Translations under genes and position numbers: made by a program
In this document: positions 4,042 through 64,000 of the stretch, in pieces
Numbering within the stretch: position 1 is the stretch's first letter
Layout: every line of letters begins with the position of its first letter
Notes under the pieces: generated by a model
The model's input: the letters and a program-made list of their open reading frames with translations, nothing else
Database searches by the model: none
What the model was told of the DNA's origin: nothing
IMG/VR virus record: IMGVR_UViG_3300027985_001212
Direction: 5' to 3' (one strand)
Length of the DNA stretch: 64,000 nucleotides
Origin: an uncultured virus (IMG/VR IMGVR_UViG_3300027985_001212)
Lineage: Duplodnaviria > Heunggongvirae > Uroviricota > Caudoviricetes

Positions 4042-6048
4042 ATGGACAGCACCTTGATCGATCAGGCGTATCACTACGGCACTGATCAACTTACCCAATA
4101 CATGACCCAGTTAACGACACTGAAATCGAGTCTTCAGGCCGATAGTGTCTCCAGTGAATTCGCAGTTAAAGTCTTTAACGCGTTGTACCCCGACGAAGTG
4201 AGCCTACAGTTGCAGGTTGACCCCAACAAAGAAGCCGTGTTGTATGATATCGATCGTCGCCTGGAAGTGTCTGCACAGAGTCTCAACAGCGGCTTTTTAG
4301 GTTTCCTGCGGCGCTACGGTCAGTCGCTGGCGGGAACCTTCAAAACAAACAGTGGGATCATTAGAAACCTGCGGGATTTGCGGGATAAAGTGGCAAGTCA
4401 GCTGGATGCTGATATTAACGATACGAAAATGGCGATGAACGGACTGGGTGAGCTGCAGTTCAACGGCAAGCTCGACCTGAACAGCATGAACGAAGGCCTA
4501 CTCGCCATGGAGCGCCTCGTCACTGGGTTCTTCGAGGATTTTGTGCCGGCCTCTAACATCATTAACATCATCGCGCTGGAGGTCATGCAGAATACCCCCG
4601 CGAATAACATGATGCGGGGCTATCGGGAAGCCGTTAAAAACGCGTACGCTAAGCACGCTAAAGCGGTCGATAAAATGATGGAAAGCTACCGCGATATGCA
4701 GCTGCATGTGGTCTCAGGTGATCGCCAGCTGCGCGCCGTCGAAGCGGAAGATGAAAACGGCAATACGTACATTTACACGACGTTCGTCCGGGTGCGTAAT
4801 GCAACCCGTGATACCTCAATCCAGACCCCCACGCCGCAGCAGGTCTTGACCCTTATCGACACCACGCTGCGGATCGCTGTATTTTACGAGTCGCGGGTTG
4901 CTGTTATCCGGAAAATCATTGAGGAAACGGAAGCGATCGTCGAAAAAATGGAAGACGACTGGTTCAACAAAGATGGTCGTTTTAAACGGTATTTCATTCT
5001 GCTTAATCAGCGTACTGAAGCCTACGGCAACATCAACCTGCGCACCGACATGGTCCGTTGGGTGACAGCCACGACGATCAGCGTCGGTAAGTTTGTTGAG
5101 CGACTGGCCAACAATACGCTGAGGAACTACACCCCAAAGCCGATTAGCCTCCAGTATCTGGAGGCCTCCCATCTGTTCGATGAAGACAGTGAACTCGACG
5201 TCAGTGCGCAGTCTCTGTTTTCTGATATCGGCGATTGGTTTGGACGTAAGATGGAATCGTCCGCCGATAAAGGGCGTACGTTCAAAGAACGTGTGGCTGA
5301 ACTGAAAGCACTCGGTGCTGACATAAACAAACTGACGACGAACCAGAAACCCTCGCGTGAGACGATTAGTTTCGAATCGGTTAATCAGATCCAGTTCAAC
5401 GGATCGATCGCCCCGAAAGAACTGATTGCCGGCGCTGAGGCGACGACTGCACTGGTAAAAACGGCATTGGTGGATTATCTCAATACCATGTCAGTGACCT
5501 ATGAAATCGTCGATCAGTGTCTGGACCAAATCAAAGGGTTGGAGGGCGCCGCGGCCGAAGAGAAATACATCGAGGCGATCACCGCCTGGGTGAAAAAGAA
5601 TAAAGCGAAGTTCGATGCTCGTGCAAAAGTCGAGCGTGATCTCTTCTACAAGACAGTGGCCGGTGATTTCTATCTGGAAGATAACCGTCATCGCCCCGGA
5701 CCATCGATCAAATATGGTCGCTCTAAAGCCCCCATCAGTGAAGTACAGGTGCCCACCCCGACCCCGGCTGAATTAAAAGCGTATTATAAGGCACTGATGG
5801 CCGGTGCGCAGCAGAAACCCACCCTCGAAGAGGCGGTCGACGGGATGTTTGATCCGATCACCGAGACAGCGCGTCGGATGAAGGACTCACCGATTGCGAT
5901 TAGTCGTCCCGGTAAAGCCTCGCAAGAGGAGATGGCACGTCAAGTGTATTTTGCACTTGAACTGATCACTAAAATCGTGTTCACTCAGTACGACAGCACC
6001 CAGATTGGTCTGCGGTATGTGCGTAACGCATTAAAAGCCTATCAGTAA
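4042..6048 (+). CDS. Internal head (inner-body family) protein with two tandem units; probable polyprotein
   Basis: Two similar units, each opening with VSAQ-SL and an amphipathic helix and containing LQFNG/IQFNG and (V/I)xGD elements shared with the head proteins at 60963-63414; multiple S-x-Q sites. Confidence 0.65.
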   Translation: MDSTLIDQAYHYGTDQLTQYMTQLTTLKSSLQADSVSSEFAVKVFNALYPDEVSLQLQVDPNKEAVLYDIDRRLEVSAQSLNSGFLGFLRRYGQSLAGTFKTNSGIIRNLRDLRDKVASQLDADINDTKMAMNGLGELQFNGKLDLNSMNEGLLAMERLVTGFFEDFVPASNIINIIALEVMQNTPANNMMRGYREAVKNAYAKHAKAVDKMMESYRDMQLHVVSGDRQLRAVEAEDENGNTYIYTTFVRVRNATRDTSIQTPTPQQVLTLIDTTLRIAVFYESRVAVIRKIIEETEAIVEKMEDDWFNKDGRFKRYFILLNQRTEAYGNINLRTDMVRWVTATTISVGKFVERLANNTLRNYTPKPISLQYLEASHLFDEDSELDVSAQSLFSDIGDWFGRKMESSADKGRTFKERVAELKALGADINKLTTNQKPSRETISFESVNQIQFNGSIAPKELIAGAEATTALVKTALVDYLNTMSVTYEIVDQCLDQIKGLEGAAAEEKYIEAITAWVKKNKAKFDARAKVERDLFYKTVAGDFYLEDNRHRPGPSIKYGRSKAPISEVQVPTPTPAELKAYYKALMAGAQQKPTLEEAVDGMFDPITETARRMKDSPIAISRPGKASQEEMARQVYFALELITKIVFTQYDSTQIGLRYVRNALKAYQ

Positions 6049-6052
6049 AACG

Positions 6053-6099
6053 TATACACCACTCCCGGCGTGGGAGTGGTGTATATACCCTTATGCCCG
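6053..6099 (+). terminator. Hairpin terminator with TATGCCCG tail
   Basis: 14-bp stem TATACACCACTCCC / GGGAGTGGTGTATA, then TTATGCCCG. Confidence 0.7.
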
Positions 6100-6198
6100 T
6101 AAAACGCTCTATTTTGCGCTGTATGGCTTTTTTGTAACGTAAAGCTGTACTGGGAAGGGTAATGCTATAGTAAGTCTCCTAGCTGCCTTCTATCGTCT

Positions 6199-6214
6199 TT
6201 CATTCCTATATTAC
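6199..6214 (+). promoter_or_regulatory. Putative early promoter TTCA-N4-TATATTAC
   Basis: Exact phiKZ early core TATATTAC at 6207-6214, heading a cluster of small genes. Confidence 0.7.
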
Positions 6215-6246
6215 CTATAAGAATCAAGGTTTTGCATGGAGTCATC

Positions 6247-6681
6247 ATGACCACCCCCTTAGTCACTATGGAACCGCCCGCGATAAGGTGTGTTAAACAA
6301 CTGCATCTTAGCATTGTGGAGTACCGTCCTATCTATGCGCATCACCTTCATCCAATCACCGAAGGTTTGGTAAGGTCACCGAAACATAACCCCAACCATT
6401 ATCCGTTACCCATAGTCCAAGACGGCCTTTTCCGACTTAAAGTGCTGCAAGAGATCAGTGAAAACTTTTCGTTGTCAATCCCCGCCCTGACGTTTCAAGA
6501 CCAGACTGTCTTACCAGTGACTGATGCCCTGCTTCTAGCACTATCACTCTATGAGATACCCAACCACCAAAGTCTGTTCCGGCTGATGGCCCCCCTGTTT
6601 GGTGAGCTAGGTGAGACGCTCTATCGTCATCACCCGCGGTTTCACTTTACACACAGTACACTGAAACTACAGCTCATCTAG
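6247..6681 (+). CDS. Hypothetical protein (early cluster)
   Basis: GGAG RBS before ATG 6247; first gene of a tightly packed + strand cluster. Confidence 0.55.
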   Translation: MTTPLVTMEPPAIRCVKQLHLSIVEYRPIYAHHLHPITEGLVRSPKHNPNHYPLPIVQDGLFRLKVLQEISENFSLSIPALTFQDQTVLPVTDALLLALSLYEIPNHQSLFRLMAPLFGELGETLYRHHPRFHFTHSTLKLQLI

Positions 6682-6692
6682 GGTGACGAGGT

Positions 6693-7076
6693 ATGATACA
6701 GATACGACTTGACATCACCGAACCCAATGCACAATACCGCGATCACCTTACCTCATTTATCGATGAGTTATACAGTGACTGCCTAGCCCAGGGGTTTATA
6801 TTGACCCGCGACAAAATCGCCGAAACCGTGGTTAACTTAAAGATACTGCTCGATCACCTTAATGATGTCGACATGGACTATCGCATTACGGGCCCCGACC
6901 TCGGTATCCCCTGCCACCTGCACAGCTTATTTGTCACCAGTTTATCCCGATATAAATTTCCAGGACAATATAACTTTAATGAACTGATCCGACTGTATAC
7001 GTCTACCGTCGATTATCCAGAACACTGCGCCTTTACGGTTCACCATAATACCCTGAACATTACTTCTCCCTTTTAA
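6693..7076 (+). CDS. Hypothetical protein
   Basis: 127 aa, GAGG immediately upstream, tight packing. Confidence 0.6.
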   Translation: MIQIRLDITEPNAQYRDHLTSFIDELYSDCLAQGFILTRDKIAETVVNLKILLDHLNDVDMDYRITGPDLGIPCHLHSLFVTSLSRYKFPGQYNFNELIRLYTSTVDYPEHCAFTVHHNTLNITSPF

Positions 7077-7091
7077 CCGGAGCATCCTCCC

Positions 7092-7637
7092 ATGTTAACG
7101 ACTGTCAGATTACCGCTCAGTGAACTCGCCGGCCTCACACGCAGTATTTTGGTTAACTATTTTACCTGCTCTGATTCCGGGGGATTAGAAACCTGTGTGC
7201 GGGATATCCTGGATCTGTGCAGTCGTGAGTGTTTTAAGTTTCCCAAATTCACCCCCGCTGAAACCAACCGGGCTGAACGCAATGAGTGCCTCAGTGGGAT
7301 GATTCTCGAATGTCAATTCTTAATCCCTAAACCACTCCCCAACCCGACACGGTATCTACCGACGATCAGTAGTGAGTATCTCGAAGCGGCTGCCCAGTAC
7401 CGGCTCGACATCGCTAAGTTTTGTGACGTTTTTTGGTATGAGGTGATCGAACCGACCATTGAGACCGCCCTACGTTGCATGCTGGAGTCCATCGCTGAAC
7501 AAAATCGAATTGAACTCTCAAACTGGCGTAATATGACCTACATCTTGCGGAGTAATGCAATAATCGTTGAGATTGGGAGTGATTGGCGGATCGATTATTT
7601 CAATAAGCTGTATGCCGAAGGAAAAATTGAAATATGA
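7092..7637 (+). CDS. Hypothetical protein
   Basis: 181 aa, GGAG RBS; stop overlaps next start (ATGA). Confidence 0.65.
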   Translation: MLTTVRLPLSELAGLTRSILVNYFTCSDSGGLETCVRDILDLCSRECFKFPKFTPAETNRAERNECLSGMILECQFLIPKPLPNPTRYLPTISSEYLEAAAQYRLDIAKFCDVFWYEVIEPTIETALRCMLESIAEQNRIELSNWRNMTYILRSNAIIVEIGSDWRIDYFNKLYAEGKIEI

Positions 7638-8083
7638 ACGTAAGTACCGCATTAATCTCCCTGATCGAAGCTAAAGCGATACTCTCCGTCTACATCGAGC
7701 AGCATCTGGATAACCTATTGTTGCAGACCCTTGATATCGAAGAGGCTATCAAATACATCGTAGACGACTGGATCTACCGTGAGACAATGCCGATCAGCAC
7801 GCCGGGACTGGCGCTGCTCACGCGGTATGGATTGCCCAGCGAAGCCGCTGACTTATTACTCACGGATATCCGCCGCCAACTCTATCGATCCTGGCCCCAT
7901 ACGGTCTACGTCATCCGCATTGACTATACAAGCCGGCATGCTATCATTACCTATGCGGACGCCCCCCCGCGCGTTACATTGCCCGCGCCTAAAGCTATAA
8001 CGGCGGAAGATCTGTTTCGACATGAACTGGCACAGGCCGAAGCGGATGGTGATTATATTCCTGAACGTTACCGACACCTTTAA
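7634..8083 (+). CDS. Hypothetical protein
   Basis: 149 aa, coupled to the previous ORF; ends GDYIPERYRHL. Confidence 0.65.
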   Translation: MNVSTALISLIEAKAILSVYIEQHLDNLLLQTLDIEEAIKYIVDDWIYRETMPISTPGLALLTRYGLPSEAADLLLTDIRRQLYRSWPHTVYVIRIDYTSRHAIITYADAPPRVTLPAPKAITAEDLFRHELAQAEADGDYIPERYRHL

Positions 8084-8128
8084 TACGGAATCCTTTCGTG
8101 TGTACTATGCGTCCAGTGAAAACAGAAC

Positions 8129-8752: not shown

Positions 8753-8796
8753 CCATCGACCCCCTAACCCCTATGCCGCAAGGAGAGTGATCCCCC

Positions 8797-9219: not shown

Positions 9220-9237
9220 GATTGGAGCCTAGTCCCT

Positions 9238-14601: not shown

Positions 14602-16581
14602 ATGCCTATTCTTTCTGATGAAACTGAACAGCCTAACGTAGACCCCATCAACCCGGAGACGCAACCGAAGAACGGCATGGGCGGTGCCAGCGCTGACGTA
14701 CCGTTTACCACACAGCCGTTCACCGATACGCTGGCCGATCAGTTGAGCGCCGCTTACGGCAGCCGTGGCCTGGTCGCTCGCCACAACACGGCAAGCATCG
14801 GCCAGTACATGGAACTGTTCGAACGCGAGATCAAAGCTATTCAGCTGACCGACCGTTCCAAGCAACTCAGCTTGGTGATGATGGATTCTGCGGTCTATCG
14901 TACGCACGCCTCCGCCATCATCCTGATCTCCCGCGAAACTCATAGCGGCCGCAACATCAGTGCCGTTCACGTGTTCCTGCTGGAAGCCACCCGCGTCGAA
15001 GAACTGCCGGCACGGCCGCTGCAGAATGCCTATATCGGGCAGACCCAGCTGAAACTGCCGTACACGACCTCCGACGTCATGACTACCAAGTACTTCCGGC
15101 AGCAGCTGCGCGAATGCCTGCAGAACGCCACCGGCGGCATCAACCGCGAAGAAAACGATCAGATCATCGACGCCGGCAAAGTCGTGATCGCCGCCAACCT
15201 GACCCCGTGTCCGGAAAATGAAGCACGACTGAAGAACATCCTGTTCTCCGGTGCCCTGGCGACGGCACATGCGATCCTGCGGGCAACCAACCGCATGCCG
15301 CATATCGCCCTGACCAGTGATGCCCTGAAACGCATCCCGCTGAAAGTTGAACCGTCCTACTCCCGCACCCAGCTGCTCGGTGCCAACGGCCTGCCGGTAC
15401 GTTCCGACGTACAGGTCTCGCTGGTACAGCGCATCAAGGATGCGGATCGCCTGGAAGGTCCGTCTGTCGGTGAAAGTATCCTGACCGTATCCGGTTTTGT
15501 CGACCAGGTCTACTACGGCAAAGATACACCGCAGCAGCCCTACGGCTACTACAACAACATGCCGCAGGATATGCGGGTCTTCCTGCCGCGTTTCGTCATG
15601 ACCGCAACCGACACCTACCTGCCGGCTAACGGCCCGGCCTTCACCCTGTTGGGGATGGCAGTGGCGACGGTACTGCAGTATCCGAACCAGATGAACCCGT
15701 ACTGGGCCCGTACCTTCACACCGGACCTGACCAAGAAGGGGAAAAAGAAAGACCTGCACGATATCGGTGTCCTGGGCTACGACCTGAACTTCGGTAACGA
15801 TCCGGCGCAGCGCACCGGTGAATATATCGATACCAAGTCTGGTGAGTACAACGAAGAAGCGCTGGTATCCTTCATCGGCAAAACCCACTACATGGACCGG
15901 ATGACCTACGCGATCGATGTCGATCCGTCACAGCCGGGTGGTTGGGCCACCGAGATGTTCCTGCGTGCTGCGACGGGCGACAAAGAAGTCAACCGTGAAC
16001 TGATGGATGCGATGAACAAGATGACCGGCGGTGCGTTCGGTGAAATCATGTCACGTGCACACGGTGCCGGTTGGATGGAAATGCCGGTGGTGACCTTCAA
16101 CCAGGAAGTGATCATGGGGGGCTACTACATCGATGATGACGGCCTGATGCAGGATATCCGTAACTACGACTACGTCGCCCTGCTCAACGAACTGATGCCC
16201 GATCGCACGATGGTCAATGAGATCATCGGTACCATGTACAACCGACAGGCCAGCGAAGACATTCGCCTCGCCAACCGTCACCGGCTGTTCACCGAAATGT
16301 TGCACAGCTTCAAGCTGACGAACTGGTTCTATCGACTGAACTTCTCTGACGTCGTCATGGATGCCTTCACGGCCGCCTGGCAGAAATGCAAGACGTTCCC
16401 GTCCACCGATCTCATGTCGAACTTCGTCCAGACCGGTCACGTCGACGTCAGCACGTTCTTCAACCAGGGCTACGCCGGCCAGAACGTGGGTGGCTTTGCC
16501 AATCAGTCTTACATCGTCACGCCGACTGCGGGCACGCAGTTCACTGGCCACAACACCGGTTTCGGTGCCAAACTCTTCTAA
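14602..16581 (+). CDS. chmA: Chimallin, major phage nucleus shell protein (phiKZ gp54-like)
   Basis: 659 aa, immediately upstream of the nvRNAP beta' gene and near the polymerase (conserved chmA position); own early promoter and terminator; strong highly-expressed codon bias; low-complexity termini. Assigned mainly by synteny and size. Confidence 0.75.
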   Translation: MPILSDETEQPNVDPINPETQPKNGMGGASADVPFTTQPFTDTLADQLSAAYGSRGLVARHNTASIGQYMELFEREIKAIQLTDRSKQLSLVMMDSAVYRTHASAIILISRETHSGRNISAVHVFLLEATRVEELPARPLQNAYIGQTQLKLPYTTSDVMTTKYFRQQLRECLQNATGGINREENDQIIDAGKVVIAANLTPCPENEARLKNILFSGALATAHAILRATNRMPHIALTSDALKRIPLKVEPSYSRTQLLGANGLPVRSDVQVSLVQRIKDADRLEGPSVGESILTVSGFVDQVYYGKDTPQQPYGYYNNMPQDMRVFLPRFVMTATDTYLPANGPAFTLLGMAVATVLQYPNQMNPYWARTFTPDLTKKGKKKDLHDIGVLGYDLNFGNDPAQRTGEYIDTKSGEYNEEALVSFIGKTHYMDRMTYAIDVDPSQPGGWATEMFLRAATGDKEVNRELMDAMNKMTGGAFGEIMSRAHGAGWMEMPVVTFNQEVIMGGYYIDDDGLMQDIRNYDYVALLNELMPDRTMVNEIIGTMYNRQASEDIRLANRHRLFTEMLHSFKLTNWFYRLNFSDVVMDAFTAAWQKCKTFPSTDLMSNFVQTGHVDVSTFFNQGYAGQNVGGFANQSYIVTPTAGTQFTGHNTGFGAKLF

Positions 16582-49705: not shown

Positions 49706-51022
49706 ATGGATACGTTTGATTTAAACCAAACAATCGAAACCTCGTTACAAGCACTACCGTTTAAGAACAACAAACGGCTTTACGAAGCGCTGGTTACTAT
49801 GGTGGTGAAACTCCGTACCGACCGTAACTATACAGCCCGTGGGTTTAAAGACGCCGGCTTTACTCAGATCGTCAAAGCAGAAACCGGCATGCAGGTCACT
49901 ATTGCAGTGGAGCCGGTTAGTTTTTTTAACGCCTGGGCCAGCCCGCCCGACCTGAAACAACACCATTCGTTGATCGCCGGCCCGTTCGATGTATTCTACC
50001 GTGGTGAAGAGGGTATCCGTTTGCTGCGAAAATCGAAAGGGATCATCAAAGGCACGGTGGATGATCGTATTGGTAAAGTGGGTGGCAGTTTCTCTGACAT
50101 TCCCCTGAAAATCGGAATCACCTTCGGCGCGTTATACGGCGACCCGGAGCGGGCACGGGACGTTGCGCTGGAAGACGTCCGTAAAAATATCAAGCAACTG
50201 TACCCCGAAGAAGCGGTCATGATCATCATGCATGAACTGGGGCACCTGTATCAGTATTTTCGCTATATCGTCAGCCAGGTCACCTTTAACCAGGTCATGA
50301 CCACGGCGAACCGATTGGCTACGGAACAGACAGATCGCGTCAAGCATGTCGAGATCTATAAAGAAGCGGCGTCCGTGTTGAAAGTCGACGTGGATCCGGA
50401 TGCGCTCGCGGGACGCAGTCCACAGGAGATCTATCTGGTGTTTGTCCGCGCTGACCGTCAGCGCATGCGCTCGGGCGACGGATCAGAGATCTATGACATG
50501 GTGTCATTTGAGTCGCTGGCCGATCAGTTTGCGATCCGCGCAGGCGATGCGGTATATCACAGCACCGCGTTGGAAAAGATGAGTAAACTTGACAATGATC
50601 CCGCGACACGGTCTATGTTCGCCCATGTATTTATTGAAACGATTAGCCTAATCGTGCTCATCGGTATCAATGTCGTTGTCCCGGGGGCGATCGTCATTAC
50701 CCTTATGTTACTGCTCCTTATTGGCCGACCGGACGTTGACACCTACGATAATGCGGAAGTGCGGATCCGGCGCATTAAAGAGCAGATGATCGACCAGCTC
50801 CGGCATACCAACGAAGCCCGGCTGGTGGAGGATATCAAGGCGGTCGATGAGGCCTTGAATAGTATGTCAGCCAAACGTGAGTTCTATCTGTTCCTGTATC
50901 AGACCCTGTCACCATCGGGCCGCGCCGAGCGGACGCAGGCACTGTTCCAGCGTAAGTTGGAAGAGATGACCCATTCGGATATCGTGTGGTATAGCCGCCG
51001 GTTGGATAACGCGGTTAGCTAA
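49706..51022 (+). CDS. Virion protein with HExxH zincin-like motif (phiKZ gp84-like)
   Basis: IMHELGHL and E.LADQFA; hydrophobic segment; N-terminal ETSLQ processing-type motif. Confidence 0.7.
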   Translation: MDTFDLNQTIETSLQALPFKNNKRLYEALVTMVVKLRTDRNYTARGFKDAGFTQIVKAETGMQVTIAVEPVSFFNAWASPPDLKQHHSLIAGPFDVFYRGEEGIRLLRKSKGIIKGTVDDRIGKVGGSFSDIPLKIGITFGALYGDPERARDVALEDVRKNIKQLYPEEAVMIIMHELGHLYQYFRYIVSQVTFNQVMTTANRLATEQTDRVKHVEIYKEAASVLKVDVDPDALAGRSPQEIYLVFVRADRQRMRSGDGSEIYDMVSFESLADQFAIRAGDAVYHSTALEKMSKLDNDPATRSMFAHVFIETISLIVLIGINVVVPGAIVITLMLLLLIGRPDVDTYDNAEVRIRRIKEQMIDQLRHTNEARLVEDIKAVDEALNSMSAKREFYLFLYQTLSPSGRAERTQALFQRKLEEMTHSDIVWYSRRLDNAVS

Positions 51023-51521: not shown

Positions 51522-54263
51522 ATGCAGGATACCATGGGCGAAGCGGTGCTGTTCGATACGGCGGGTCTTGACGACCTGTCAATGCAGGCCCTGGAGTTTA
51601 TCGAGTTTCGTAACGACTCGGCCTTTAAATCAGTACAGAGCGCACAGAACCGTTATGACGAAGCGATGCTGCTCTTTAAAACCCTGGATGAGGAAAGTGC
51701 TACCTGCCGTGGCCTAATGGAGTCGGCACAAAGCCTGTGTCCGGACGCCTTTTACTGCGAGATGCCCTTGGCAAGTTTTACCGCGGCCATGTCGACCACT
51801 AACTACGACATCTCGTGTCAGAGTATTGCGGAGATGACCGGTAAGATGGCGGTGGGGGTGGCGCTGGCGGTGGTAGCCGCATTCGTGGCCTTAGTGGCGG
51901 TAATCCGACGCTTCTTCAGTAACATACTCGGCCGGGTTGAGCGGGTACGAATGAAGTCGAAGAAAGTGGAGGGTGAACGCCGCCGGCTCGACGATGCCTA
52001 CTACAAGTTAGATCCGAACCAGCGCCAAACGTACGCGGCCGAAGCAAAGCGTATCGAAGAGCAACTGATGGCCACGGTCCGTCCGGCCGCCTCCCCGTTC
52101 TTTAAGAACGTACTGATGGGTGGCAGCGGTAACCTGGATAAGCTTATCGGTCTGTTGACGGCCTCCATCAGTGCCATGGATATGCAGAAACTTAACCAGC
52201 TATTGGATAAGCTCAACAATACCTGGGTGGCCCATTTTAAGGACGGCACCATCCAGTCCAGTGGGTCTGTGGTCGCCAATGCTGAAGGGATTAATAACTT
52301 CTTTAATCCCATTCTGGCTGAAGTCAAAACGATTGTCGCGGAGGTGGAAGCCTACCGGGCGGACGTGATGGGTGTCATGGATAAAAACTGCCAGGAGGTA
52401 GCGAAGCTGGTAGGGTTAAAGGCGAGTCGTGTGGCCGGTTTCAGCAGCGTAGCGAACCAGTTAGATGAAGGGCGCAAAGAAACTGACCCCAATGAAATCC
52501 TGCGTGAATGGAGTGCCCGTAAGCGCGAGTATCAGCTGTTTATCGAGCCTGCTAAGGCAGACGGGAATCTCGATAACGTACAGCGTACGGTTAATCATCA
52601 CGACTCGGCTGCCGAAAAACTCACCCGCAACACCACGGCGTTAGAGAAACGTATGCAGGCGATGGTGTCGAAGCCCTCCGGTAAGGATAAAAAGATTCTG
52701 AACCGCGTCGAGCTGGCTAAACAAAGCATCATGAACCAGGTCAAATTAGGGATTCGTCAAATTCGGCAGATTGTCGCTGAAGGAGGCGCCGCCACACGCC
52801 TGTTGATGGCGGTGCTGGATGAAATCGACCGTAACCTCACCGCGGCCGACAGTGAAATCGCCATGCGTAAACAGATTATTGCGCGTGTCTTACGGACCAC
52901 CCCCTCCACGCAAGGGTGGTCTCCAGTGGTTACGGCTACGTCATTGGATGAGTTTGAAGCCTGTCTGGACGAGTTAGCCGTTAGCTATCAATCCGTGATG
53001 GCGGATACACCGGAAGCCCAGGTTGAACTGGATCACGAGTATAGCCGCGTCTGTGCGCTGCAGTCATTGCTCGGCGAGATACAGGTCGCGGGGGCAGTGT
53101 CGACCCAGGGCTTAATCACCTTGCAAACGTACCTGCCGGAAGAGGTCGCGGCACTGGAAGCCGCCGGTGAACCCCTAACGGTGTCGACCCAGGGCGCGCT
53201 TGACGTGATCATCAAAGCGCTATTTCTCGTCTTGGGGGGGCTGTTTACGTCGCTGATCGCCTTCATTCTAAAGTTTGGGCTGATACTGAAGGTATTCAGT
53301 TCACTGAAAGCGGTCTATCGGCGGTTACGCACACAGATTGATTACGGCCTATTCACCGACAAATCCTTCAAGGATCTTTACGCCGCCAATAAGGAAGCCC
53401 TCGACCGGCTTTATCTGCCGGTGATCAACCCGTACATCGTCCGGATGTATACCGGCGACGTACCGAAGGTCATTGCTTTTATCAGCGGGTTTGATCGTGC
53501 CCTCAATAAATCGGCCTTGTATACCGCGGTGGTCACAAACCGGTATCTGACGCCGATGTCCGCGATCGAAAGTTTGCTGGCAACGCGTAACATTGCGGAC
53601 CTGGATCTCCGACAGTTTACCGCCATGGCGGATCAGCTGAACGACCAGATCACCGTAATGCAGAGTGATGTGGATGCCTTCAATCTGATGTTGCAAGATC
53701 CCGCCCATATCGGCGAGTTGATCGATATTGCGGTAACGCAAGGGGTGTACGCCCGTAGCGGGGAAGGGGATACTAGCCGTATCACGAATCTAGCCGAGAC
53801 CTACCGAACGCTGGTCGCCATGACCGGCGATGCCCAGGTCGAAGCGATGGTGCGCGCCACGCCCCTAAAGAAACCCCTGGCTATTGGGAGTAAACTGTTA
53901 ATCGATCCGATCGAACTGACCTTGAATGTGGATCGGCATATCAATGCCATCGAATCCGCCGGCCGGCACTTGAAAAACGTTAAGGCAGAGCTGGCCAAGT
54001 TCCACCAGCGGATCATGCAGCACAAATCCACTGACCCAAGTTGGGATATGGGCGCGATGCAGCAGGCTGCCAACAATTTCGGCACCACGCTGACGACCTA
54101 TAACCTGATGTATAACCGGGTTACTGTTAATATCAGTCAGAGCATCAGTCTGCTGAAAACGTTTATCGAAGAAGATATCCGCATGAAACGACTGGGACAG
54201 GAGGAGTCCCGGATCATACGTAATAACCTGGATGTCGTTATGACATTCGAAGTTGGAATGTAG
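51522..54263 (+). CDS. Large head protein with two propeptide plus hydrophobic-helix units; probable polyprotein
   Basis: GGAGG RBS; SF T...S.TNY..SCQ followed by a hydrophobic helix; internal VSYQ/VSTQ/VSTQ cluster followed by a second hydrophobic helix. Confidence 0.65.
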   Translation: MQDTMGEAVLFDTAGLDDLSMQALEFIEFRNDSAFKSVQSAQNRYDEAMLLFKTLDEESATCRGLMESAQSLCPDAFYCEMPLASFTAAMSTTNYDISCQSIAEMTGKMAVGVALAVVAAFVALVAVIRRFFSNILGRVERVRMKSKKVEGERRRLDDAYYKLDPNQRQTYAAEAKRIEEQLMATVRPAASPFFKNVLMGGSGNLDKLIGLLTASISAMDMQKLNQLLDKLNNTWVAHFKDGTIQSSGSVVANAEGINNFFNPILAEVKTIVAEVEAYRADVMGVMDKNCQEVAKLVGLKASRVAGFSSVANQLDEGRKETDPNEILREWSARKREYQLFIEPAKADGNLDNVQRTVNHHDSAAEKLTRNTTALEKRMQAMVSKPSGKDKKILNRVELAKQSIMNQVKLGIRQIRQIVAEGGAATRLLMAVLDEIDRNLTAADSEIAMRKQIIARVLRTTPSTQGWSPVVTATSLDEFEACLDELAVSYQSVMADTPEAQVELDHEYSRVCALQSLLGEIQVAGAVSTQGLITLQTYLPEEVAALEAAGEPLTVSTQGALDVIIKALFLVLGGLFTSLIAFILKFGLILKVFSSLKAVYRRLRTQIDYGLFTDKSFKDLYAANKEALDRLYLPVINPYIVRMYTGDVPKVIAFISGFDRALNKSALYTAVVTNRYLTPMSAIESLLATRNIADLDLRQFTAMADQLNDQITVMQSDVDAFNLMLQDPAHIGELIDIAVTQGVYARSGEGDTSRITNLAETYRTLVAMTGDAQVEAMVRATPLKKPLAIGSKLLIDPIELTLNVDRHINAIESAGRHLKNVKAELAKFHQRIMQHKSTDPSWDMGAMQQAANNFGTTLTTYNLMYNRVTVNISQSISLLKTFIEEDIRMKRLGQEESRIIRNNLDVVMTFEVGM

Positions 54264-54318: not shown

Positions 54319-57231
54319 TTATAACGCGCGGTGTTTTACAAACTCGATATTAAGATCATCCTCGATCGCTAACCGACCATTTTCCAACACTGTCAGGCGT
54401 TTACCAATACTGATACGGGACGTCGTATCCGTTAAGGTCACCACCTCGTACTCATTCCCCTCCTCATCTTTTATATCAGAGATACGGACCGAGACAATAT
54501 CATCCCCCGCCAAGGCGCGAATGCTGTCCACCAGCGTCGAGTTCGAAACCGTCGTATTGGTGAGCGTATCTGCAATCGCCGCCACGGCAGTAGCCTTGAG
54601 TGCATTGCGCAGATCCGTGTTTTTATAGGTCACATCGTCCACGTAAAAGGTCACGTTGAACCCCTGACGTGCTGGAATCGTGACCTCTTCAGCGTCATCG
54701 GCAATCACCTTAATGGTGCCGGTCCCGATTTCCGGATAGTACAGGATTTTGGTTTCCTCCAAGGCCACATCGTTCAGTGCACTGAGGGTATCCGTCACCC
54801 ACCCCTGAATTACCGTAGGCACACTGGCGATATACGCTAGAGTATCCTCATCGGTCGCAAATTGATAGCGTCCATCCAGCAGCATCAAATCAATCAGCCG
54901 CAACAACCCACGCTCCGCATTGATGACCGGTTCACCGTCCACAAACACCTGACTCCCCGCCGCATGCAAGACCACCTGTTCACCCGTGACCTCATCGATG
55001 ACGGGGTCACCCACCGCATGTAACACCGTCGCACTGTACGTCCCGTCCCCGTTATCAGTGATCACCGGATCGCCATTAACATCTTCCAGCAAGACCGTTT
55101 TAGTCCAAAAAGACAGCACGTCACTGCCGTATTTTTCATAACCATACGGACTTAAGGTGGTCCGGCTATTCGCCCACAAATAGGTCATGGCATACCCGAA
55201 CTGAATGCTCAGGGTCTCTTCGATGATCCCATGTCCTTCATCGGTTAACAGGAACTGCGCAATGTGCTCATCAATGCTGCTGGCCTCCATCCCTACAGTG
55301 GCATACCCGGTGACCGCATAGACAAGCGTAAACTCCGCATTGAGGTTAACCGAAATAGTCCGGCTATCCCCATCGAACATCTGGAAATTCTGTAACTGCA
55401 AGCGATCATAGCCATCGATATCAAACGCGGTATCTAAATCAAACTGATACACCCGTTCGTTATCACTCAGTCCCACCAGAGTACCGTTGATATAGGCCCG
55501 TACGGAATCATCATCCGGAACGATGCTCAGCTGGGGCACTAGCAGATCATCATCCAGCGCCTTAATGACCGCGCCCGAGGTGACTTTGACGGTTAATCGG
55601 TATCCCGCCTCCGTCCTATCGATACGGTAGGTATCCGTGGCAATCTGTAACCCCAAGGTGTCATTTTCGATCACGAAGGTTTTACTGACAATGGCCGGGG
55701 CGTCCAGATAGTACGGCCGTATTGAGAACTGACTGTTCGCCGCGTTTAAAACATAGTGAAAGGGTGAATACCCCAGACTACGTTCGTTAACCAGGTTCAT
55801 AATTGTCTCGGGAGTTTGTGCCTTAATGGCATCCACCTCCGCCTGGGTCAGTAGGGTGGGTACTCCGTTCTCCAGGTCGTAAATGATATCCGGCAAGATG
55901 GTATACCGGTTTGTGCTGTGCTGGTGCACGGCCGAATGTTGCACCAGGTCAGCGAGTGTCGTAGACAGCGTTGCAATAGTCGCGGCTATACCGCTGGAGG
56001 TACCACCATCGTCCGGGGCGGGGATTGGCTTCGTGGCCAAAATCGTACGCTGCCCCAGGTTATCCACGTCGAGGACTTTACCGAAGCCCGCATCTTTCAG
56101 TCGCGTACTCAGTTGGTTCGAGGTGATCGGTTGGTCAATCCCACTGCTGCTGTTATTGATCACCCGCTCACGCATGGTTTCAAAATCTACCCCATCGGTC
56201 CCACCGTTAATGTTGCTAATGGACCAGATAGTCAGGGTACTGAAATTATTGAGGGGGGCACTGTAGACGCTGGTGTCGTCACTGTCCAAGTCACGCCACT
56301 GCGTCACGTAATTACGTACGTCTTGCGACCCTAGATCAAGCTGTAGATTACCTTTTGAACTATAGATATCAACCCGGAGTTCATCCAGTAGGTTCTCGCG
56401 TGCGTAATACACGGGCGGGATCCGTACGGTGAGCCCACTTTCATCCAGCGTTAACAACGCCGTCGGCTTTAAGACGTCAAACGTTTGGTCGCTGTGTGTG
56501 GTTAACAGTTCAGTCCAGCTACTCCCTCCACTGGAGCGCATAAACACCCGCGCGTAGTAGAACTGATCGCTCACGGCATAGGTGCGCTTAAAGGGCGTCG
56601 CTGAATTCAGTGTGTCAGTATGGCTTACCAGTAACATCTGGTCCATCGGCACATAGAGGCACAACATCCGCACGTTGTTAAGCAATACCTCTTTCCATTC
56701 GACTAAGTTACTGGTCAAGGTTTGTAACGGTGAATCGATATCGCCGTCATAGACCACATGAATACCCCCATGGCCCATCAGACGGATCTCAATGGGGTAT
56801 TGTAAGGTAAAGGTCGCCCCCCCGACAGTAACCGATGTATGCCGCGGAATCACCAGTTTACGGATATTACCGACCCCGGTAGCGATTGCCTTACTGATAA
56901 ACTCTTCCTTAGAAAAAGCAAAGATAATCGTAGCGTTAGCAGGGGTGCAAAAACGATCCAGGTAATCCACGTCCGACATATGGCGATAAAGGTCCGACCA
57001 GCTTTCCGCCAGCACCGGGTATAACTTGCGCATCTCCATCTCCGTGCGGGCCAGTTGCGCCCCACCGGTTTCGGCAATCGCCTCAATCGCTAAATTAAAC
57101 GGTGAGGTCGCATCCAGAATATCCTTCGACCCCCCGGACCGTTCAACCACCTCATTGATGATCATGCGATAGATCGCCTTGGGGTTAAACCGGAACTGAT
57201 CGATTTTTGACTGAAAATCTTCAATAGCCAC
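54319..57231 (-). CDS. Large virion structural/baseplate protein (phiKZ gp87-like)
   Basis: 970 aa; LYRHMSD.DY...F and FTLQYPIEIR motifs; AAGGAG RBS; synteny. Confidence 0.7.
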   Translation of the reverse strand: MAIEDFQSKIDQFRFNPKAIYRMIINEVVERSGGSKDILDATSPFNLAIEAIAETGGAQLARTEMEMRKLYPVLAESWSDLYRHMSDVDYLDRFCTPANATIIFAFSKEEFISKAIATGVGNIRKLVIPRHTSVTVGGATFTLQYPIEIRLMGHGGIHVVYDGDIDSPLQTLTSNLVEWKEVLLNNVRMLCLYVPMDQMLLVSHTDTLNSATPFKRTYAVSDQFYYARVFMRSSGGSSWTELLTTHSDQTFDVLKPTALLTLDESGLTVRIPPVYYARENLLDELRVDIYSSKGNLQLDLGSQDVRNYVTQWRDLDSDDTSVYSAPLNNFSTLTIWSISNINGGTDGVDFETMRERVINNSSSGIDQPITSNQLSTRLKDAGFGKVLDVDNLGQRTILATKPIPAPDDGGTSSGIAATIATLSTTLADLVQHSAVHQHSTNRYTILPDIIYDLENGVPTLLTQAEVDAIKAQTPETIMNLVNERSLGYSPFHYVLNAANSQFSIRPYYLDAPAIVSKTFVIENDTLGLQIATDTYRIDRTEAGYRLTVKVTSGAVIKALDDDLLVPQLSIVPDDDSVRAYINGTLVGLSDNERVYQFDLDTAFDIDGYDRLQLQNFQMFDGDSRTISVNLNAEFTLVYAVTGYATVGMEASSIDEHIAQFLLTDEGHGIIEETLSIQFGYAMTYLWANSRTTLSPYGYEKYGSDVLSFWTKTVLLEDVNGDPVITDNGDGTYSATVLHAVGDPVIDEVTGEQVVLHAAGSQVFVDGEPVINAERGLLRLIDLMLLDGRYQFATDEDTLAYIASVPTVIQGWVTDTLSALNDVALEETKILYYPEIGTGTIKVIADDAEEVTIPARQGFNVTFYVDDVTYKNTDLRNALKATAVAAIADTLTNTTVSNSTLVDSIRALAGDDIVSVRISDIKDEEGNEYEVVTLTDTTSRISIGKRLTVLENGRLAIEDDLNIEFVKHRAL

Positions 57232-58286: not shown

Positions 58287-59465
58287 ATGTTTGCAGAAGA
58301 TTTTGTCACACTTAAAGAGGCGGTCGTAAAGATCTCACAGGTGTTGGGTGACGCCTCCGCTGAGGATCTTATCTCGTTTACCCGTGTATTACGGGCAGAG
58401 CCCCGCACTATCGTCGACACCCGTTTATTCGGTGGCGAGGCGATCAGTCCGGTGCTTCAGTCCGCCACCACGTTGTTTACGGGCTATTACCTGCAGGCGT
58501 TTCAGCTGATGCAGTTGCGGGTTACCCATGCTGAAGTGGCTGGAATGTTGAACCAGATCAATCCGAATCGAGACAGTCGTACGGATGCCCGTATCCTCGG
58601 TGATGCCCTGGCGTCCTCGATTCAGAGCGAGAATATGGACGTTAAGGTAAACCTGGCGGTCGAGGGACTCGGCACACTTGCTACATATTCTTCGCTTACG
58701 GAAGCGTCAATGCAGGCAATCGACCTGCGTGAGGCCGCGCGTACGGCGGCGGGTATCAACGGTGCGACGACCCCGGATGGTATGGTAAACTCCACCGATA
58801 TGTCCCGCATGATGCGCGAGGCAGTCGATCTGTCCGTGGGTAAAGTGTTTACCGTCACGGTTACCAAAGACAGAAACCGGGCCGAAATCACGTTGACCGT
58901 ACGACTGAAGGTGGTGCCGGTGGCATCCAATACCATAACCCATATCCTGACCTCAGGGGTCAACGGTGCGCCGTCCCTGAAGGAACGCTGGGCGCAGGTC
59001 ACCAACGATGAGATCCGCTTCTTCCAGGATTTCATGTTCAACATCGATCTGATGGAAGAACACAAAAAAGCGATTATCGCGGATAAGACGGGGCTTTACT
59101 CCGAGATCTTGGATAATCGTCGCAAAAGCAAACTGTGGGGGTATTTAACCCTACGTCCCTCCGTCGCTGTGGCCTCCAACATCTGGATCATCGACAGCGT
59201 GACCCAAAAAGAGGTTGAGCGTGGACTGCACGGCAGTCTGTCTGACAACTACCGGCTGCGGCAGAAACTGTTCGCTGGGAGTTACATGCTCCTATTGATC
59301 GTTATCGACAGTCGCTGGGATGTGGTCACGTTCTACCACCGGGGGATCGAAGACCCTACGGTTTATAAGATCGGTGATCTGAAAGCGGCTAACCGTGCCG
59401 GTGCTACCGATGTTACTGAAATACTGAAGGCCTACCAGGCCGGCAGTGCCCCTTACATGAAATAG
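58287..59465 (+). CDS. Head/inner-body protein (phiKZ gp89-like)
   Basis: AAGGA RBS before ATG 58287; EP...VD, GYYLQA, L.VGK and FYHRG motifs; internal EASMQ. Confidence 0.7.
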   Translation: MFAEDFVTLKEAVVKISQVLGDASAEDLISFTRVLRAEPRTIVDTRLFGGEAISPVLQSATTLFTGYYLQAFQLMQLRVTHAEVAGMLNQINPNRDSRTDARILGDALASSIQSENMDVKVNLAVEGLGTLATYSSLTEASMQAIDLREAARTAAGINGATTPDGMVNSTDMSRMMREAVDLSVGKVFTVTVTKDRNRAEITLTVRLKVVPVASNTITHILTSGVNGAPSLKERWAQVTNDEIRFFQDFMFNIDLMEEHKKAIIADKTGLYSEILDNRRKSKLWGYLTLRPSVAVASNIWIIDSVTQKEVERGLHGSLSDNYRLRQKLFAGSYMLLLIVIDSRWDVVTFYHRGIEDPTVYKIGDLKAANRAGATDVTEILKAYQAGSAPYMK

Positions 59466-60962: not shown

Positions 60963-62099
60963 ATGTCCACGGATGTAACGGACGATTACTATACCGACGT
61001 CATCGGTGTCGAAACAGCACTCCAAGCGGTGCAACACACCCAATATCAGATGACCTGTTTGCAGGATAGCCTGCAGGTGTTCAGTGCGTTGGAACAGTTT
61101 ACGGAATCCCTGCAGGCCAAAGGTCAGGTTGATGACACGTTGGTCGCGGTAAAAACCAGCCTTCAGTCCGCCGCGGGTCTGGGTCCTGAAACCGTTTCAC
61201 TGCAAGGCTTCGTCGAAACCCTGCGGGCCGCCTGGACAGCCCTCCAGAAGATGATGGATCGGGTGGCTGAAAGCCTGCGGACGTTATGGGATAAAATCTT
61301 TGGTTCGTTACCGACCATGCGTGAGCGGCTGAAGAAACAAGCGGATGCAATCAGTACACGCGAAAAAGAGAAAACTACCAACAAGAAAAACAAGCTGAGT
61401 GTAACCGGCTACAATGCGTTAGGGGGCGGCGGTCGACTTGATAGTCAGACCGTCATCAATGGTCTGAAAGCGATGCATGCGGCGCTGAGCACTGCCTATG
61501 GGCTGCGCACAGATGTTATGGCGGTCTATCAGTCAATGGCGAGTCATTTCACTGACCACACGATCGCCAAACGTACCCCTGAACAGCTAGCGCAAATCAC
61601 TAGCGAAACGACCGAAGCGTTGTCGAAGAAGTTTATCAGCTATAAAGCGTTTAACGATATGGACAAGATCACCTTGCCGGGGGACAAACGGGTCGCCGTG
61701 GTCCCGAACGAAATGCCGCGGGTGATTAAAGTAGGCGAAGACCATGATGACCGGATCGAAGTAAACGCCTGGTCATTGATGGAGTGTCAAAAGGTCAACG
61801 ATGAAGCCATTAAGGTGGTGGATATTATGTTGGCGAACAAAAACTTCAAAGATGATCTCGAAAAGGCCCGTAAAACGGCGGTAAGTGCCACTGATAAGAT
61901 GGTACGGTCGGTCAACCGAGCCGGCGAGGTCGGGGGCACCGGCGGTAATCTGAGCGCGAAGTCGGTCGATAAACGGATGCGCGTTTTCAGTCGCTTCAAT
62001 ACTGGCGTATTTGATAAACTCAATACCTTTGGGTACAACAGTGCGCGTACTGCGTACAATGTTGTTAATCTTATGGTGGCAAATAAAGTGGCGGTATAA
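60963..62099 (+). CDS. Internal head protein, paralogous family (phiKZ gp93-97-like)
   Basis: GGAGG RBS; propeptide with ALQ/CLQ/SLQ repeats ending VSLQ-GFVETLRAAW; LPGDK motif shared with the next gene. Confidence 0.75.
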   Translation: MSTDVTDDYYTDVIGVETALQAVQHTQYQMTCLQDSLQVFSALEQFTESLQAKGQVDDTLVAVKTSLQSAAGLGPETVSLQGFVETLRAAWTALQKMMDRVAESLRTLWDKIFGSLPTMRERLKKQADAISTREKEKTTNKKNKLSVTGYNALGGGGRLDSQTVINGLKAMHAALSTAYGLRTDVMAVYQSMASHFTDHTIAKRTPEQLAQITSETTEALSKKFISYKAFNDMDKITLPGDKRVAVVPNEMPRVIKVGEDHDDRIEVNAWSLMECQKVNDEAIKVVDIMLANKNFKDDLEKARKTAVSATDKMVRSVNRAGEVGGTGGNLSAKSVDKRMRVFSRFNTGVFDKLNTFGYNSARTAYNVVNLMVANKVAV

Positions 62100-62172
62100 G
62101 CCCCACTGGCTGCTGTTACAAAAAAACCACTACCTGCGCAGGGGTGGAAAACTTACGAATGGAGTAAAGAAC

Positions 62173-63414
62173 ATGTTCGATATGCACGTAAGCCTCCAGG
62201 AACTGATGAACGAAGAAGACGTCCCGATGGCGGCCGAGACCGACGAAGGCTACGACGAATCCGTTGCCGAAGTCGCCATGGCCGAGACCTCCATGCAGGC
62301 CGCTGTCTACATGGAAAAACACGCACTGCGCGTGTTCGATGCCCTGGAATCCATGCAGTCCGTCATCACCGAAGTCGCCGGCGACAAAGGTCTGACGGTG
62401 GGTGAAGCTACCCTGATGCGTGAAGCCCTGCAAAACCTGGCCCCGGAGCTGCAGCTGGGCGCTTCGGTGTCTACCCAGTGCTTCGACGCCAACCTCGACG
62501 ACGATGGCCGTCGCACTGCCTGGGAAGTATCCGCGCAGGCGATCGGTGAACGTCTGGCCGCTATCTGGCGCGCCTTCGTCAACGGCGCTCTGCGCGCCAT
62601 GGCCAGTATCGCCGACTTCTTCTCCAAGGTGTTCTCTTCCGCACCGAAGCTGAAAGCCAAAATGGTGGCACTGAAAGACGAAGTAGGCAAGGCTAAGTTC
62701 GCCGGTGAAGGCAAAGTGAAGGTATCCGGCTACAGCCGCCTGGGGTTGGGCGGTAAGATGGACCCGGCAACCATCGCCAAGGCACTGGGTAACCTCGACG
62801 ATTTCATGAAGCGCGTCATCGCCACCAAATCTGAACTCGTCAACTTCTACAAGGAAACCGGCTCGACTGTCGCCAAAGCGATGAACGAGAAGTCCGAAAG
62901 CACCGCGACGGAACTGGCAAAGACTATCGATACCCTGGTGAAAGACAGCAATGTGCTGGCTGACGCCGATAAGCTCCCCGGTATCGAGCTGCCGGGTGAT
63001 CGTAAGTTCGATAACAATTCGCTGGCGCTGCGCAGTAAAACCACTGCCAATGAAAGCATGGAGATCGACGCCTGGTCATCTGCCGACTGCACCACCGTGC
63101 TGGATGCTGCCATCGCCGTGATCGACACGCTGCTGAAAGACACGAACTACCCCAAAGAGGCTAACGCGGCCCGCAAAACCGCTATGGAAGAAGTGACCAA
63201 GCTGGTCGACAGCTTCGATCGTGGTCGCTTGGCCAAATGGTGGACCCGTACTGCAGTGGATCAGTACATGAAGGCTGTCCGTAAAAACTTCGTCACGGTC
63301 TACAACAGCGGTGGTAACCTGGCGTACTCCTCTGCTCGTGCGGCCCTGGCTGCCGTTGAGACGATGAAAAGCGCGGCCACCAAAGGCAAGAAAGAAGACG
63401 CCCCGGCGGCGTAA
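62173..63414 (+). CDS. Major internal head protein, paralogous family (phiKZ gp93-97-like)
   Basis: GGAG RBS before ATG 62173; acidic propeptide with SLQ/SMQ/STQ ending VSAQ-AIGERLAAIW; strong codon bias; clear paralogue of 60963-62099. Confidence 0.8.
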   Translation: MFDMHVSLQELMNEEDVPMAAETDEGYDESVAEVAMAETSMQAAVYMEKHALRVFDALESMQSVITEVAGDKGLTVGEATLMREALQNLAPELQLGASVSTQCFDANLDDDGRRTAWEVSAQAIGERLAAIWRAFVNGALRAMASIADFFSKVFSSAPKLKAKMVALKDEVGKAKFAGEGKVKVSGYSRLGLGGKMDPATIAKALGNLDDFMKRVIATKSELVNFYKETGSTVAKAMNEKSESTATELAKTIDTLVKDSNVLADADKLPGIELPGDRKFDNNSLALRSKTTANESMEIDAWSSADCTTVLDAAIAVIDTLLKDTNYPKEANAARKTAMEEVTKLVDSFDRGRLAKWWTRTAVDQYMKAVRKNFVTVYNSGGNLAYSSARAALAAVETMKSAATKGKKEDAPAA

Positions 63415-63429
63415 TTAACTACCGGCACT

Positions 63430-63463
63430 GAGGAGAACCCTTCGGGGTTCTCCTTTTATGCCG
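63430..63463 (+). terminator. Terminator with UUCG loop and TATGCCG tail
   Basis: GAGGAGAACCC-TTCG-GGGTTCTCCTT followed by TTATGCCG. Confidence 0.8.
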
Positions 63464-63532
63464 CCTCATAAACCCCATGATATGCACTGTGCATATATCA
63501 CTAAACGTTGCAACGTTTTAGGAGTAGACCGT

Positions 63533-64000
63533 ATGGATATTTTAACTGAATGTCTTCAGGGGCTGGACGCGACAGTCGTTGAAGTAAAGAAAGCGGCCCC
63601 GGCCGCCGTGGTGGATGAACTGCTCGATCCGATCGTGGAAGACGGTCTGGAAGAGGACCATGACTTCACCAAAGTGGTTGAAGCCGAACTCGACGCACAA
63701 GCAAAGCTCGTGGTGTCCGAACAGGCCTATAATCTCTTTGTGGGGCTGGCCGGCATGTATGACCAGATTAGCGTGTTAGCGGGGGATACGGGACTGACCC
63801 AACGCGAAGCCCTGCTTGCACAAGCTAGCCTACAGAACCTGGTACCGGAACATACGTTCTTAAACGACGTGATGGCCACCCAGGGTTGGGGTACCGCCAG
63901 TACGCGTAACGAGGCGACTGAAACCTCATTGCAGGCGATCGGTGAACGGCTGAGCCGCGTGTGGCAGATCATGTTGAATGGCATGCAGCGTGCTATCGCC
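63533..64000 (+). CDS. Internal head protein paralogue, 5' part (runs off window)
   Basis: Not in the ORF track. AGGAG RBS; my translation MDILTECLQ...GLTQREALLAQASLQNL...ETSLQAIGERLSRVWQ aligns with 62173-63414. Confidence 0.75.
   Translation, partial: MDILTECLQGLDATVVEVKKAAPAAVVDELLDPIVEDGLEEDHDFTKVVEAELDAQAKLVVSEQAYNLFVGLAGMYDQISVLAGDTGLTQREALLAQASLQNLVPEHTFLNDVMATQGWGTASTRNEATETSLQAIGERLSRVWQIMLNGMQRAIA

Follow-up and report, generated by a model that had tools for sequence, protein, structure and literature searches.

Proteolysis in the proheads of phages T4, phiKZ, 201phi2-1 and SPN3US takes place after glutamate (Glu), as described in PMC5694885, PMC10052503 and PMC9026906. The enzymes of the phiKZ type (phiKZ gp175, 201phi2-1 gp268 and SPN3US gp245) belong to one protease family, which is PF20034 in Pfam, phrog_3014 in PHROGs and S80 in MEROPS. 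We have analyzed a stretch of 64,000 nucleotides from an uncultured virus (IMG/VR record IMGVR_UViG_3300027985_001212), which we will call the window. Seven head proteins encoded in it contain, in their propeptide regions, a total of 28 curated candidate cleavage sites (between 4126 and 63934) of the form [V/T/E]-S-x-Q↓[A/S/G] (arrows indicate known or candidate cuts), with glutamine (Gln) at position P1. A sequence-only reading of the window had quoted a series of such tetrapeptides, all of which are present in the reading frames to which it had assigned them.

A switch from Glu to Gln on the substrate side is established at the sequence level. Its best explanation, as we infer on strong grounds, is probably a prohead protease of the S80 family which cuts after Gln.

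Glutamine in the columns of known cleavage sites

In SPN3US, mass spectrometry has mapped cleavage sites in gp45 (ASE-20), gp47 (AVE-75 and ALE-111), gp50, gp53 (ARE-12, AQE-95 and AQE-125) and gp54 (AQE-124 and ARE-137), as given in Table 2 of PMC10052503. For phiKZ, the cut at SLE-13 of gp93 is published (PMC5694885); the other phiKZ sites mentioned here are taken from sequence motifs and alignments.

The protein encoded at 49706..51022 (+ strand) belongs to the phiKZ gp84 / SPN3US gp45 family of head proteins (phrog_2767, E=3.9e-77; BLASTP against gp45, E=1.7e-33). Its candidate site is TSLQ↓A-15 (49739..49750). The BLASTP alignment with gp45 begins at this point and pairs Q15 with E20, the mapped ASE-20 site of PMC10052503. 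In an alignment of 17 sequences of the family, only two have Q in this column: the window protein (TSLQ↓AL) and P0273 (ESMQ↓AL), a relative with 47% identity to it. Another 14 have E, for example phiKZ (ISNE↓VL) and Xanthomonas phage RTH11 (ISME↓AI), and the region is absent in one. According to the sequence-only reading, many relatives already known to use S-x-Q would speak against its proposal. In this family, all the homologues outside the window clade which contain the region (14/14) read E.

Three inner-head (ejection) proteins are found at the end of the window, all of them on the + strand. Two belong to PF12699, whose gathering cut-off is 27 bits: 60963..62099, with 57.9 bits, and 62173..63414, with 95.4 bits. 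The third, 63533..64000, is a paralogue cut by the window end, recognized by its position and its alignment to the 62173 protein; the fragment (155 amino acids) has no family match, PF12699 included. For the genes at 58287 (described below), 62173 and 63533 we have preferred these starts to those of the longest open reading frames (ORFs); their homologues start at the same place.

All three proteins have several candidate sites. Those of the 60963 protein are TALQ-21, TCLQ-34, DSLQ-38, ESLQ-51, TSLQ-68 and VSLQ↓G-81 (61194..61205), the last of which adjoins GFVETLRAAW. The 62173 protein contains VSLQ-9 (62188..62199), TSMQ-42, ESMQ-62, EALQ-87, VSTQ-102 and VSAQ↓A-122 (62527..62538). This protein has only eight Gln, six of which are candidate sites, all of them in its first 122 residues. 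In the 63533 protein we find ECLQ-9 (63548..63559), ASLQ-101 and TSLQ↓A-134 (63923..63934), which stands before AIGERLSRVW.

Four columns of sites can be aligned in the inner-head proteins: one N-terminal, two in the middle of the propeptide and one at its junction with the mature protein. In the N-terminal column the window has SLQ-9, SLQ-9 and CLQ-9, where phiKZ has SLE-11/13. One of the mid-propeptide columns faces AQE-124 of gp54, whose E124 corresponds to Q102 of the 62173 protein, and PSLE↓CFDG of RTH11. The junction column reads VSLQ↓GFVETL, VSAQ↓AIGERL, DSMQ↓AVGERM and TSLQ↓AIGERL in the clade. In other phages it reads AQE-125↓GWKETL (gp53), ARE-137↓SLWDDI (gp54), VTME↓SVKETL (RTH11) and ISLE, ISQE, ISTE or VSLE (phiKZ). 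The junction Q of the 62173 protein is thus aligned with E125 of gp53 and E137 of gp54, both mapped according to PMC10052503.

Among 5.8 billion clusters, only P0002 is related to the 62173 protein, with 50% identity to it overall and 56% in the propeptide. It retains both the S and the Q of all five S-x-Q sites of the 62173 protein. Over five aligned columns, taking together the window proteins and P0002 and P0273, which are their only known relatives, all 16 cells of the clade contain Q (16/16) and none contains E. The proposal that Q stands where E would be expected is thus borne out at orthologous cleavage positions, some of them mapped experimentally: The replacement is complete in the clade and absent outside it. 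The suggestion that the mature protein begins directly after the last motif also agrees with the alignment to the maturation sites of gp53 and gp54 as listed in PMC10052503, which places the predicted junctions at the same point.

A protein of 668 amino acids is encoded at 4042..6048 (+ strand). It consists of two tandem inner-head-like modules, recognized by an internal duplication (residues 50-268 against 365-578, E=5e-9), and its match to PF12699 is weak, with a score (24.3 bits) below the cut-off of 27. No homologue of this protein was found among isolated phages. The first module contains SSLQ-32, VSLQ-56 and VSAQ↓S-79 (4267..4278), and the second one ISLQ-371 and VSAQ↓S-390 (5200..5211), so that sites are present at equivalent places in both halves. 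Cuts at 371 and 390 would split the protein into two mature modules, in the manner of a small polyprotein.

The 913 amino acid protein encoded at 51522..54263 (+ strand) occupies the position of phiKZ gp86 / SPN3US gp47. PHROGs, Pfam and isolated phages contain no homologue of its sequence, and we consider it the counterpart of gp47 by gene position and by the layout of sites before helices only, without a sequence match. Its candidate sites are LSMQ-22, ESAQ-70, ISCQ-100 (51810..51821), VSYQ-490, VSTQ-529 and VSTQ-557 (53181..53192). Two hydrophobic segments, 105-136 and 558-595, follow directly after S-x-Q sites, and they are probably membrane-spanning. In SPN3US gp47, ALE-111 also precedes a predicted transmembrane helix (PMC10052503).

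The last of the seven proteins, 58287..59465 (+ strand), is a head protein of the phiKZ gp89 / SPN3US gp50 family (phrog_3239, E=1.2e-91; BLASTP against gp50, E=2.2e-35), with a candidate site at ASMQ↓A-143 (58704..58715). The region around the site aligns poorly with gp50, so the positional correspondence is approximate. We should also note that in the annotated gp50 the sole A-T-E of the first 270 residues ends at 145, while Table 2 of PMC10052503 prints ATE-127.

Both Gln codons are used at the sites, as the sequence-only reading had noticed: The 28 site Gln correspond to 22 CAG and 6 CAA, and the whole window contains 505 CAG and 245 CAA. A recoding of Gln codons has been considered and rejected, since Gln and Glu are conserved normally elsewhere, for example at the invariant Q70 and E38 of the gp89 family.

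Distribution of the motif and its flanking residues

In order to measure enrichment in a set defined a priori, we have taken the three inner-head proteins: PF12699 defines two of them, and the truncated 63533 protein was added for its position and its alignment. Of the 37 Gln in this set, 12 have Ser at P3, as compared with 28/604 in 57 other proteins (Fisher p=3.9e-7). In the seven proteins together the figure is 32/144 (Fisher p=5.7e-10), a biased value, since this set was chosen for the motif. S-x-E is not enriched at all: It accounts for 8/217 Glu in the seven proteins and for 44/1001 in the others (p=0.85). A count of this kind, comparing both motifs in head and non-head proteins, had been proposed in the sequence-only reading, and its outcome is the expected one, with S-x-Q enriched and S-x-E not. 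The reciprocal control has been made in phages with Glu sites. S-x-Q represents 3/97 Gln in phiKZ gp92-97 and 6/99 in four inner-head-like proteins of RTH11, so there is no excess; the RTH11 propeptides are rich in V/L/P-S-x-E instead.

Shuffling the residues of each protein gives significant values for 62173 (p=5e-5), 51522 (p=6.5e-4), 4042 (p=2.5e-3), 63533 (p=5e-3) and 60963 (p=0.024). The 62173 protein contains five S-x-Q where 0.57 are expected; nine are found in the 51522 protein and seven in the 4042 protein. The longer motif [VTEILDAS]-[SC]-x-Q-[ASG] occurs 20 times in the window, always in the seven proteins, a count which is descriptive only, since these very sites were used to define the motif. 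The corresponding form with E at P1 is found once, in an unrelated protein.

This circularity, and the fact that two of the seven proteins do not reach significance individually, are what might be said in favor of chance or of a compositional artefact. Such an origin has a negligible probability in our opinion: It would have to account for the p value of the a-priori set, for the conservation of the motif in relatives with 47-50% identity and for its match, column by column, with known Glu sites.

The same counts bear on another alternative: The protease might be relaxed, cutting after both Glu and Gln, and the Gln sites might be the product of drift, not of a true switch. Among viral chymotrypsin-like proteases, several tolerate either Q or E at P1. 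The change from E to Q requires a single base (GAR to CAR), so a switch probably passed through an enzyme accepting both residues, and a dual-specific intermediate is a likely evolutionary route. Nevertheless, drift should leave a mixture, yet the 16 aligned cells are all Q in at least two genomes which are about 50% diverged. In the seven proteins the longer motif is found 20 times with Q and never with E at P1, and S-x-E does not rise above background. We therefore consider a relaxed protease without a true switch unlikely.

The motif is found in the counterparts of proteins which are cleaved in SPN3US according to PMC10052503: gp45, gp50 and gp53/54, to which gp47 may be added by position only. 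The phiKZ homologues of these substrates are also cleaved, as stated in the Discussion of PMC10052503. Five proteins are interspersed among them in the window: The counterparts of gp48, gp49 and gp51 are supported by BLAST, those of gp46 and gp52 are positional. We have taken these five as non-substrates from their absence in Table 2 of PMC10052503. For example, the nine cleaved proteins which this table lists do not include gp48. S-x-Q accounts for 5/66 Gln in the five intervening proteins and for 16/68 in the counterparts of substrates (p=0.016). The longer motif is absent from all five, the gp87-like protein included.

Around the 28 sites, V is present at P4 in 10/28, Ser at P3 in 24/28 and A, S or G at P1' in 20/28. 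In the published logo of SPN3US gp245 (PMC10052503, section 3.3), P4 is also V and P1' is S, so that the difference lies in P1. A small residue at P3, V at P4 and a small residue at P1' are the preferences of the Glu-type enzymes.

A further feature is an acidic residue at P5, found in 11/28 sites against a background of 13% (p=5e-4); an acidic residue is present at P4 or P5 in 17/28. We have not noticed this feature in the Glu-type sites of RTH11. An acidic P5 could partly offset the charge which is lost at P1.

S80 proteases and a proposed change of specificity

An S80 protease is present in all the chimalliviruses (nucleus-forming, phiKZ-like jumbo phages) we have examined. The window itself contains none according to PHROGs, and a search of its six frames with a hidden Markov model (HMM) of our own gives a best value of E=2.5. 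The gene for the major capsid protein also lies outside the window. In SPN3US, the propeptides of the major capsid protein (ATE-130) and of the portal (ATE-161 and AQE-254) have their junctions at Glu. In the S80 protease of SPN3US, the catalytic residues are H77, S153 and D178 (PMC5694885). These enzymes have a conserved site right after the catalytic domain, which reads KWNSPALE↓N in phiKZ and KWNSPSLE↓S in RTH11. This site may be used to survey the residue at P1 in the enzymes themselves. Our sample contains 269 S80 proteases: 120 listed of the 524 matches of a word search and 150 listed of 1017 representative clusters, with one sequence shared; about 870 divergent clusters were left out.

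The C-terminal tail of S80 proteases is itself characteristic. Its first motif, P-x-[LM]-E (in full K-W-x-[SA]-P-x-[LM]-E), adjoins the catalytic domain, and S-[ML]-E is found some 40 residues further on. Both Glu, at positions 196 and 235 in RTH11, are almost invariant, and the terminal Trp is conserved. The family is also large: At least 1017 clusters at 50% identity are found, far beyond what isolated phages suggest. A comparison by sequence of solved structures with the S80 profile gave none at E<=1.

Several results weigh against a Gln-cutting S80 enzyme. The primary autocleavage column has E in 266 of the 269 sampled proteases, is missing in the three others, which are truncated, and has Q in none. 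The second autocleavage column has E in 263/269. Glu at P1 is thus close to universal in the sampled S80 family. We have also searched for a degenerate DNA pattern of the autocleavage motif with Gln, and no match is found in the viral, metagenome and genome contigs, collections which do not contain the window clade. An independent S80 enzyme of the Q type is thus not known. The Glu version of the pattern detects about 220 stretches in the viral contigs; the pattern requires eight anchor residues and misses roughly 15% of known S80 genes. On the substrate side, the 49706 protein (p=0.27) and the 58287 protein (p=0.23) are not individually enriched, with one strong site each. In addition, a canonical [SAG]-x-E lies within eight residues upstream of 5/28 sites, and three of the four inner-head junctions in the window are among them. 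At those five sites a Glu-specific enzyme could therefore cut slightly upstream.

Such upstream motifs might be taken to mean that the protease is still Glu-specific and cuts elsewhere, for example after [AG]-x-E just before the S-x-Q, which would then be a signal in the propeptide for targeting or packing, or have some other role. AWE-118 in the 62173 protein, ATE-130 in the 63533 protein and GPE-76 in the 60963 protein are indeed found 4-5 residues before the junction Q, and P0002 keeps an ATE; the acidic residue at P5 in 11/28 sites may be read in the same way. On the other hand, 23/28 sites have no [SAG]-x-E in the eight residues before them, and the frequency of nearby [SAG]-x-E is not significant (background 8.7%, p=0.09). 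No Glu is found ahead of the N-terminal SLQ-9 sites, and the column of gp45 ASE-20 has no canonical Glu motif in the clade (TIE in the window, MTE in P0273). Moreover, it is the Q which the alignments put opposite the mapped E, and not the E found upstream. An unchanged, Glu-specific protease thus seems very unlikely to us.

The gp84/gp45 family deserves a separate comment. Its members contain an HExxH motif (H176, E177 and H180) which is invariant in 17/17 sequences, and a downstream E269 (in ExLADQFA) is also invariant. The family profile shows a weak match to M48 chains of the ZMPSTE24/Ste24 type (E=0.0013), which extends over both motifs; no Pfam hit is found at E<=0.01. Judging from these residues, chimallivirus heads appear to contain a second, metalloprotease-like protein, which is itself a substrate of the prohead protease. 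SPN3US gp45 is listed as a protein of unknown function, and a literature search on phiKZ gp84 as a metalloprotease found no paper.

With its invariant HExxH and weak M48 match, this protein is a candidate for the case that another enzyme cuts at S-x-Q, be it the gp84-family head protein or a phage protease outside the S80 family encoded elsewhere in the genome. The gp84 family has the same HExxH in Glu-type phages, and so offers no account of a switch limited to one clade. The presence of an S80 protease in all the chimalliviruses examined also argues against another enzyme, and the flanking preferences are the same as those of S80 enzymes as described in PMC10052503, which makes it unlikely. 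In all, we regard the participation of another enzyme as highly improbable.

The explanation we favor, a Gln-cutting S80 protease, may be described as follows. The proteolysis code of head maturation would have changed at P1, from Glu to Gln, in this lineage. The phage's own S80 serine protease, similar to phiKZ gp175 and SPN3US gp245 and expected outside the window, would act during prohead maturation, cutting after [V/T/E]-S-x-Q and before a small residue (A, S or G). It would remove the multi-site N-terminal propeptides of inner-head (ejection) proteins and of other head proteins, and would also separate fused modules. Both the cleavage itself and a change of the S1 pocket, which would now take an amide and not a carboxylate, are inferred, as is the adaptation of all the substrates to it.

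A stricter version is possible, though we find it rather doubtful: A strictly Gln-specific S80 protease, with no residual activity on Glu, would have arisen once in the clade, with every site of all head substrates converted. If this is true, these phages mature their heads in a way that is orthogonal to the one found in every other phiKZ-like phage known. Nucleus-forming phages which infect the same cell could then be separated by a barrier of assembly incompatibility, and nature would provide two capsid proteases, each orthogonal to the other.

The phage and its relation to known systems

We have compared the 66 predicted proteins of the window with PHROGs. Two of them mark the phage family: chimallin, the nuclear shell protein (14602..16581, + strand; phrog_4795, E=4.5e-54), and the PhuZ tubulin (2198..3178, + strand; phrog_4733, E=1.1e-63), which is common, not universal, among Chimalliviridae. 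The scan also detects four beta-type subunits of split, multisubunit RNA polymerases (starting at 16663, 28653, 30763 and 45715), two DNA polymerases and a series of virion proteins. Between 44886 and the end of the window, the order and orientation of the genes match those of phiKZ gp79-gp94, in the conserved head-gene block of Chimalliviridae (gp79-gp97 in phiKZ), and of SPN3US gp41-gp54, and SPN3US gp42, gp44, gp45, gp48, gp49, gp50 and gp51 have BLASTP orthologues in the window.

The gp87 / gp48-like virion protein (54319..57231, - strand; phrog_3248, E=2.8e-301) has served us both as an internal negative control and as a marker of relatedness. It matches 290 records of isolated phages, all of them with less than 60% identity; the best isolate is RTH11, with 36.8%. 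A search of isolated phages at the DNA level gave no match to the window, whose contig has 76,946 bases according to the protein database. No close relative is found in viral contigs probed with an inner-head protein, the gp87-like protein and the gp84 pair, and the window clade does not appear in metagenome contigs (probed with the inner-head pair) or in genome contigs (probed with the gp84 pair). The presence of chimallin, PhuZ and RNA polymerase subunits, the gene order, the low identity to isolates and the lack of a DNA match lead us to assign the window, as a genome fragment, to a deep-branching chimallivirus which has not been cultured.

Other features of the window may be mentioned. Two runs of small genes in the same strand (about 100-200 amino acids each), at 6232-10460 and 35259-38050, have no PHROG match; these are lineage-specific, putative early or accessory genes. 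At 19375-19986, two ORFs on opposite strands overlap almost completely (202 amino acids in the - strand and 201 in the + strand), and neither has a family match. The ORF in the + strand has been used in our protein counts.

The full-text literature we have searched, which does not extend to subscription journals, contains no report of a phage prohead protease with Gln at P1. The statement that this change had not been seen described thus agrees with the searchable literature. A lineage with Gln at all conserved sites would be the first natural switch of specificity in the T4/phiKZ family of prohead proteases. It would be a clean case of coevolution of an enzyme with dozens of substrate sites, which represent thousands of cuts per capsid, and would give a direct handle on the composition of the S1 pocket of S80 enzymes. 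There is also a practical consequence: If Glu is assumed, neither the prediction of mature head proteins from motifs nor semi-specific searches of mass-spectrometry data would work in such phages.

Among known systems, some viral proteases have a similar preference. The picornavirus 3C protease and the coronavirus main protease cut after Gln, with a small residue at P1' (A, S or G) and often Leu at P2, which recalls the S-L-Q↓A/S/G of the window. The analogy is one of function only: These are chymotrypsin-like cysteine proteases of RNA viruses with an unrelated fold, and no 3C-like protease turned up in the window.

The protease of T4, gp21 (MEROPS S77, with sites of the type L/I-x-E), is also a morphogenetic serine protease, whose targets within the prohead are the core, the internal head proteins and the enzyme itself, and it is related to S80 (PMC5694885). 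It differs in having Glu at P1 and a hydrophobic residue at P3, and it belongs to another phage family; nothing in the window resembles it in sequence.

The closest systems are those of phiKZ gp175, 201phi2-1 gp268 and SPN3US gp245, with which the window shares the phage family, the gene block and the substrates (gp84/45, gp89/50 and PF12699 proteins). The multi-site N-terminal propeptides are also similar, with 122 and 134 residues in the window and 125 and 137 in SPN3US gp53 and gp54, as derived from PMC10052503. The differences are found in the sites: P1 is Gln, not Glu, at every aligned site, P3 is nearly always Ser, where SPN3US has Ala in the sites listed there, and an acidic preference is added at P5.

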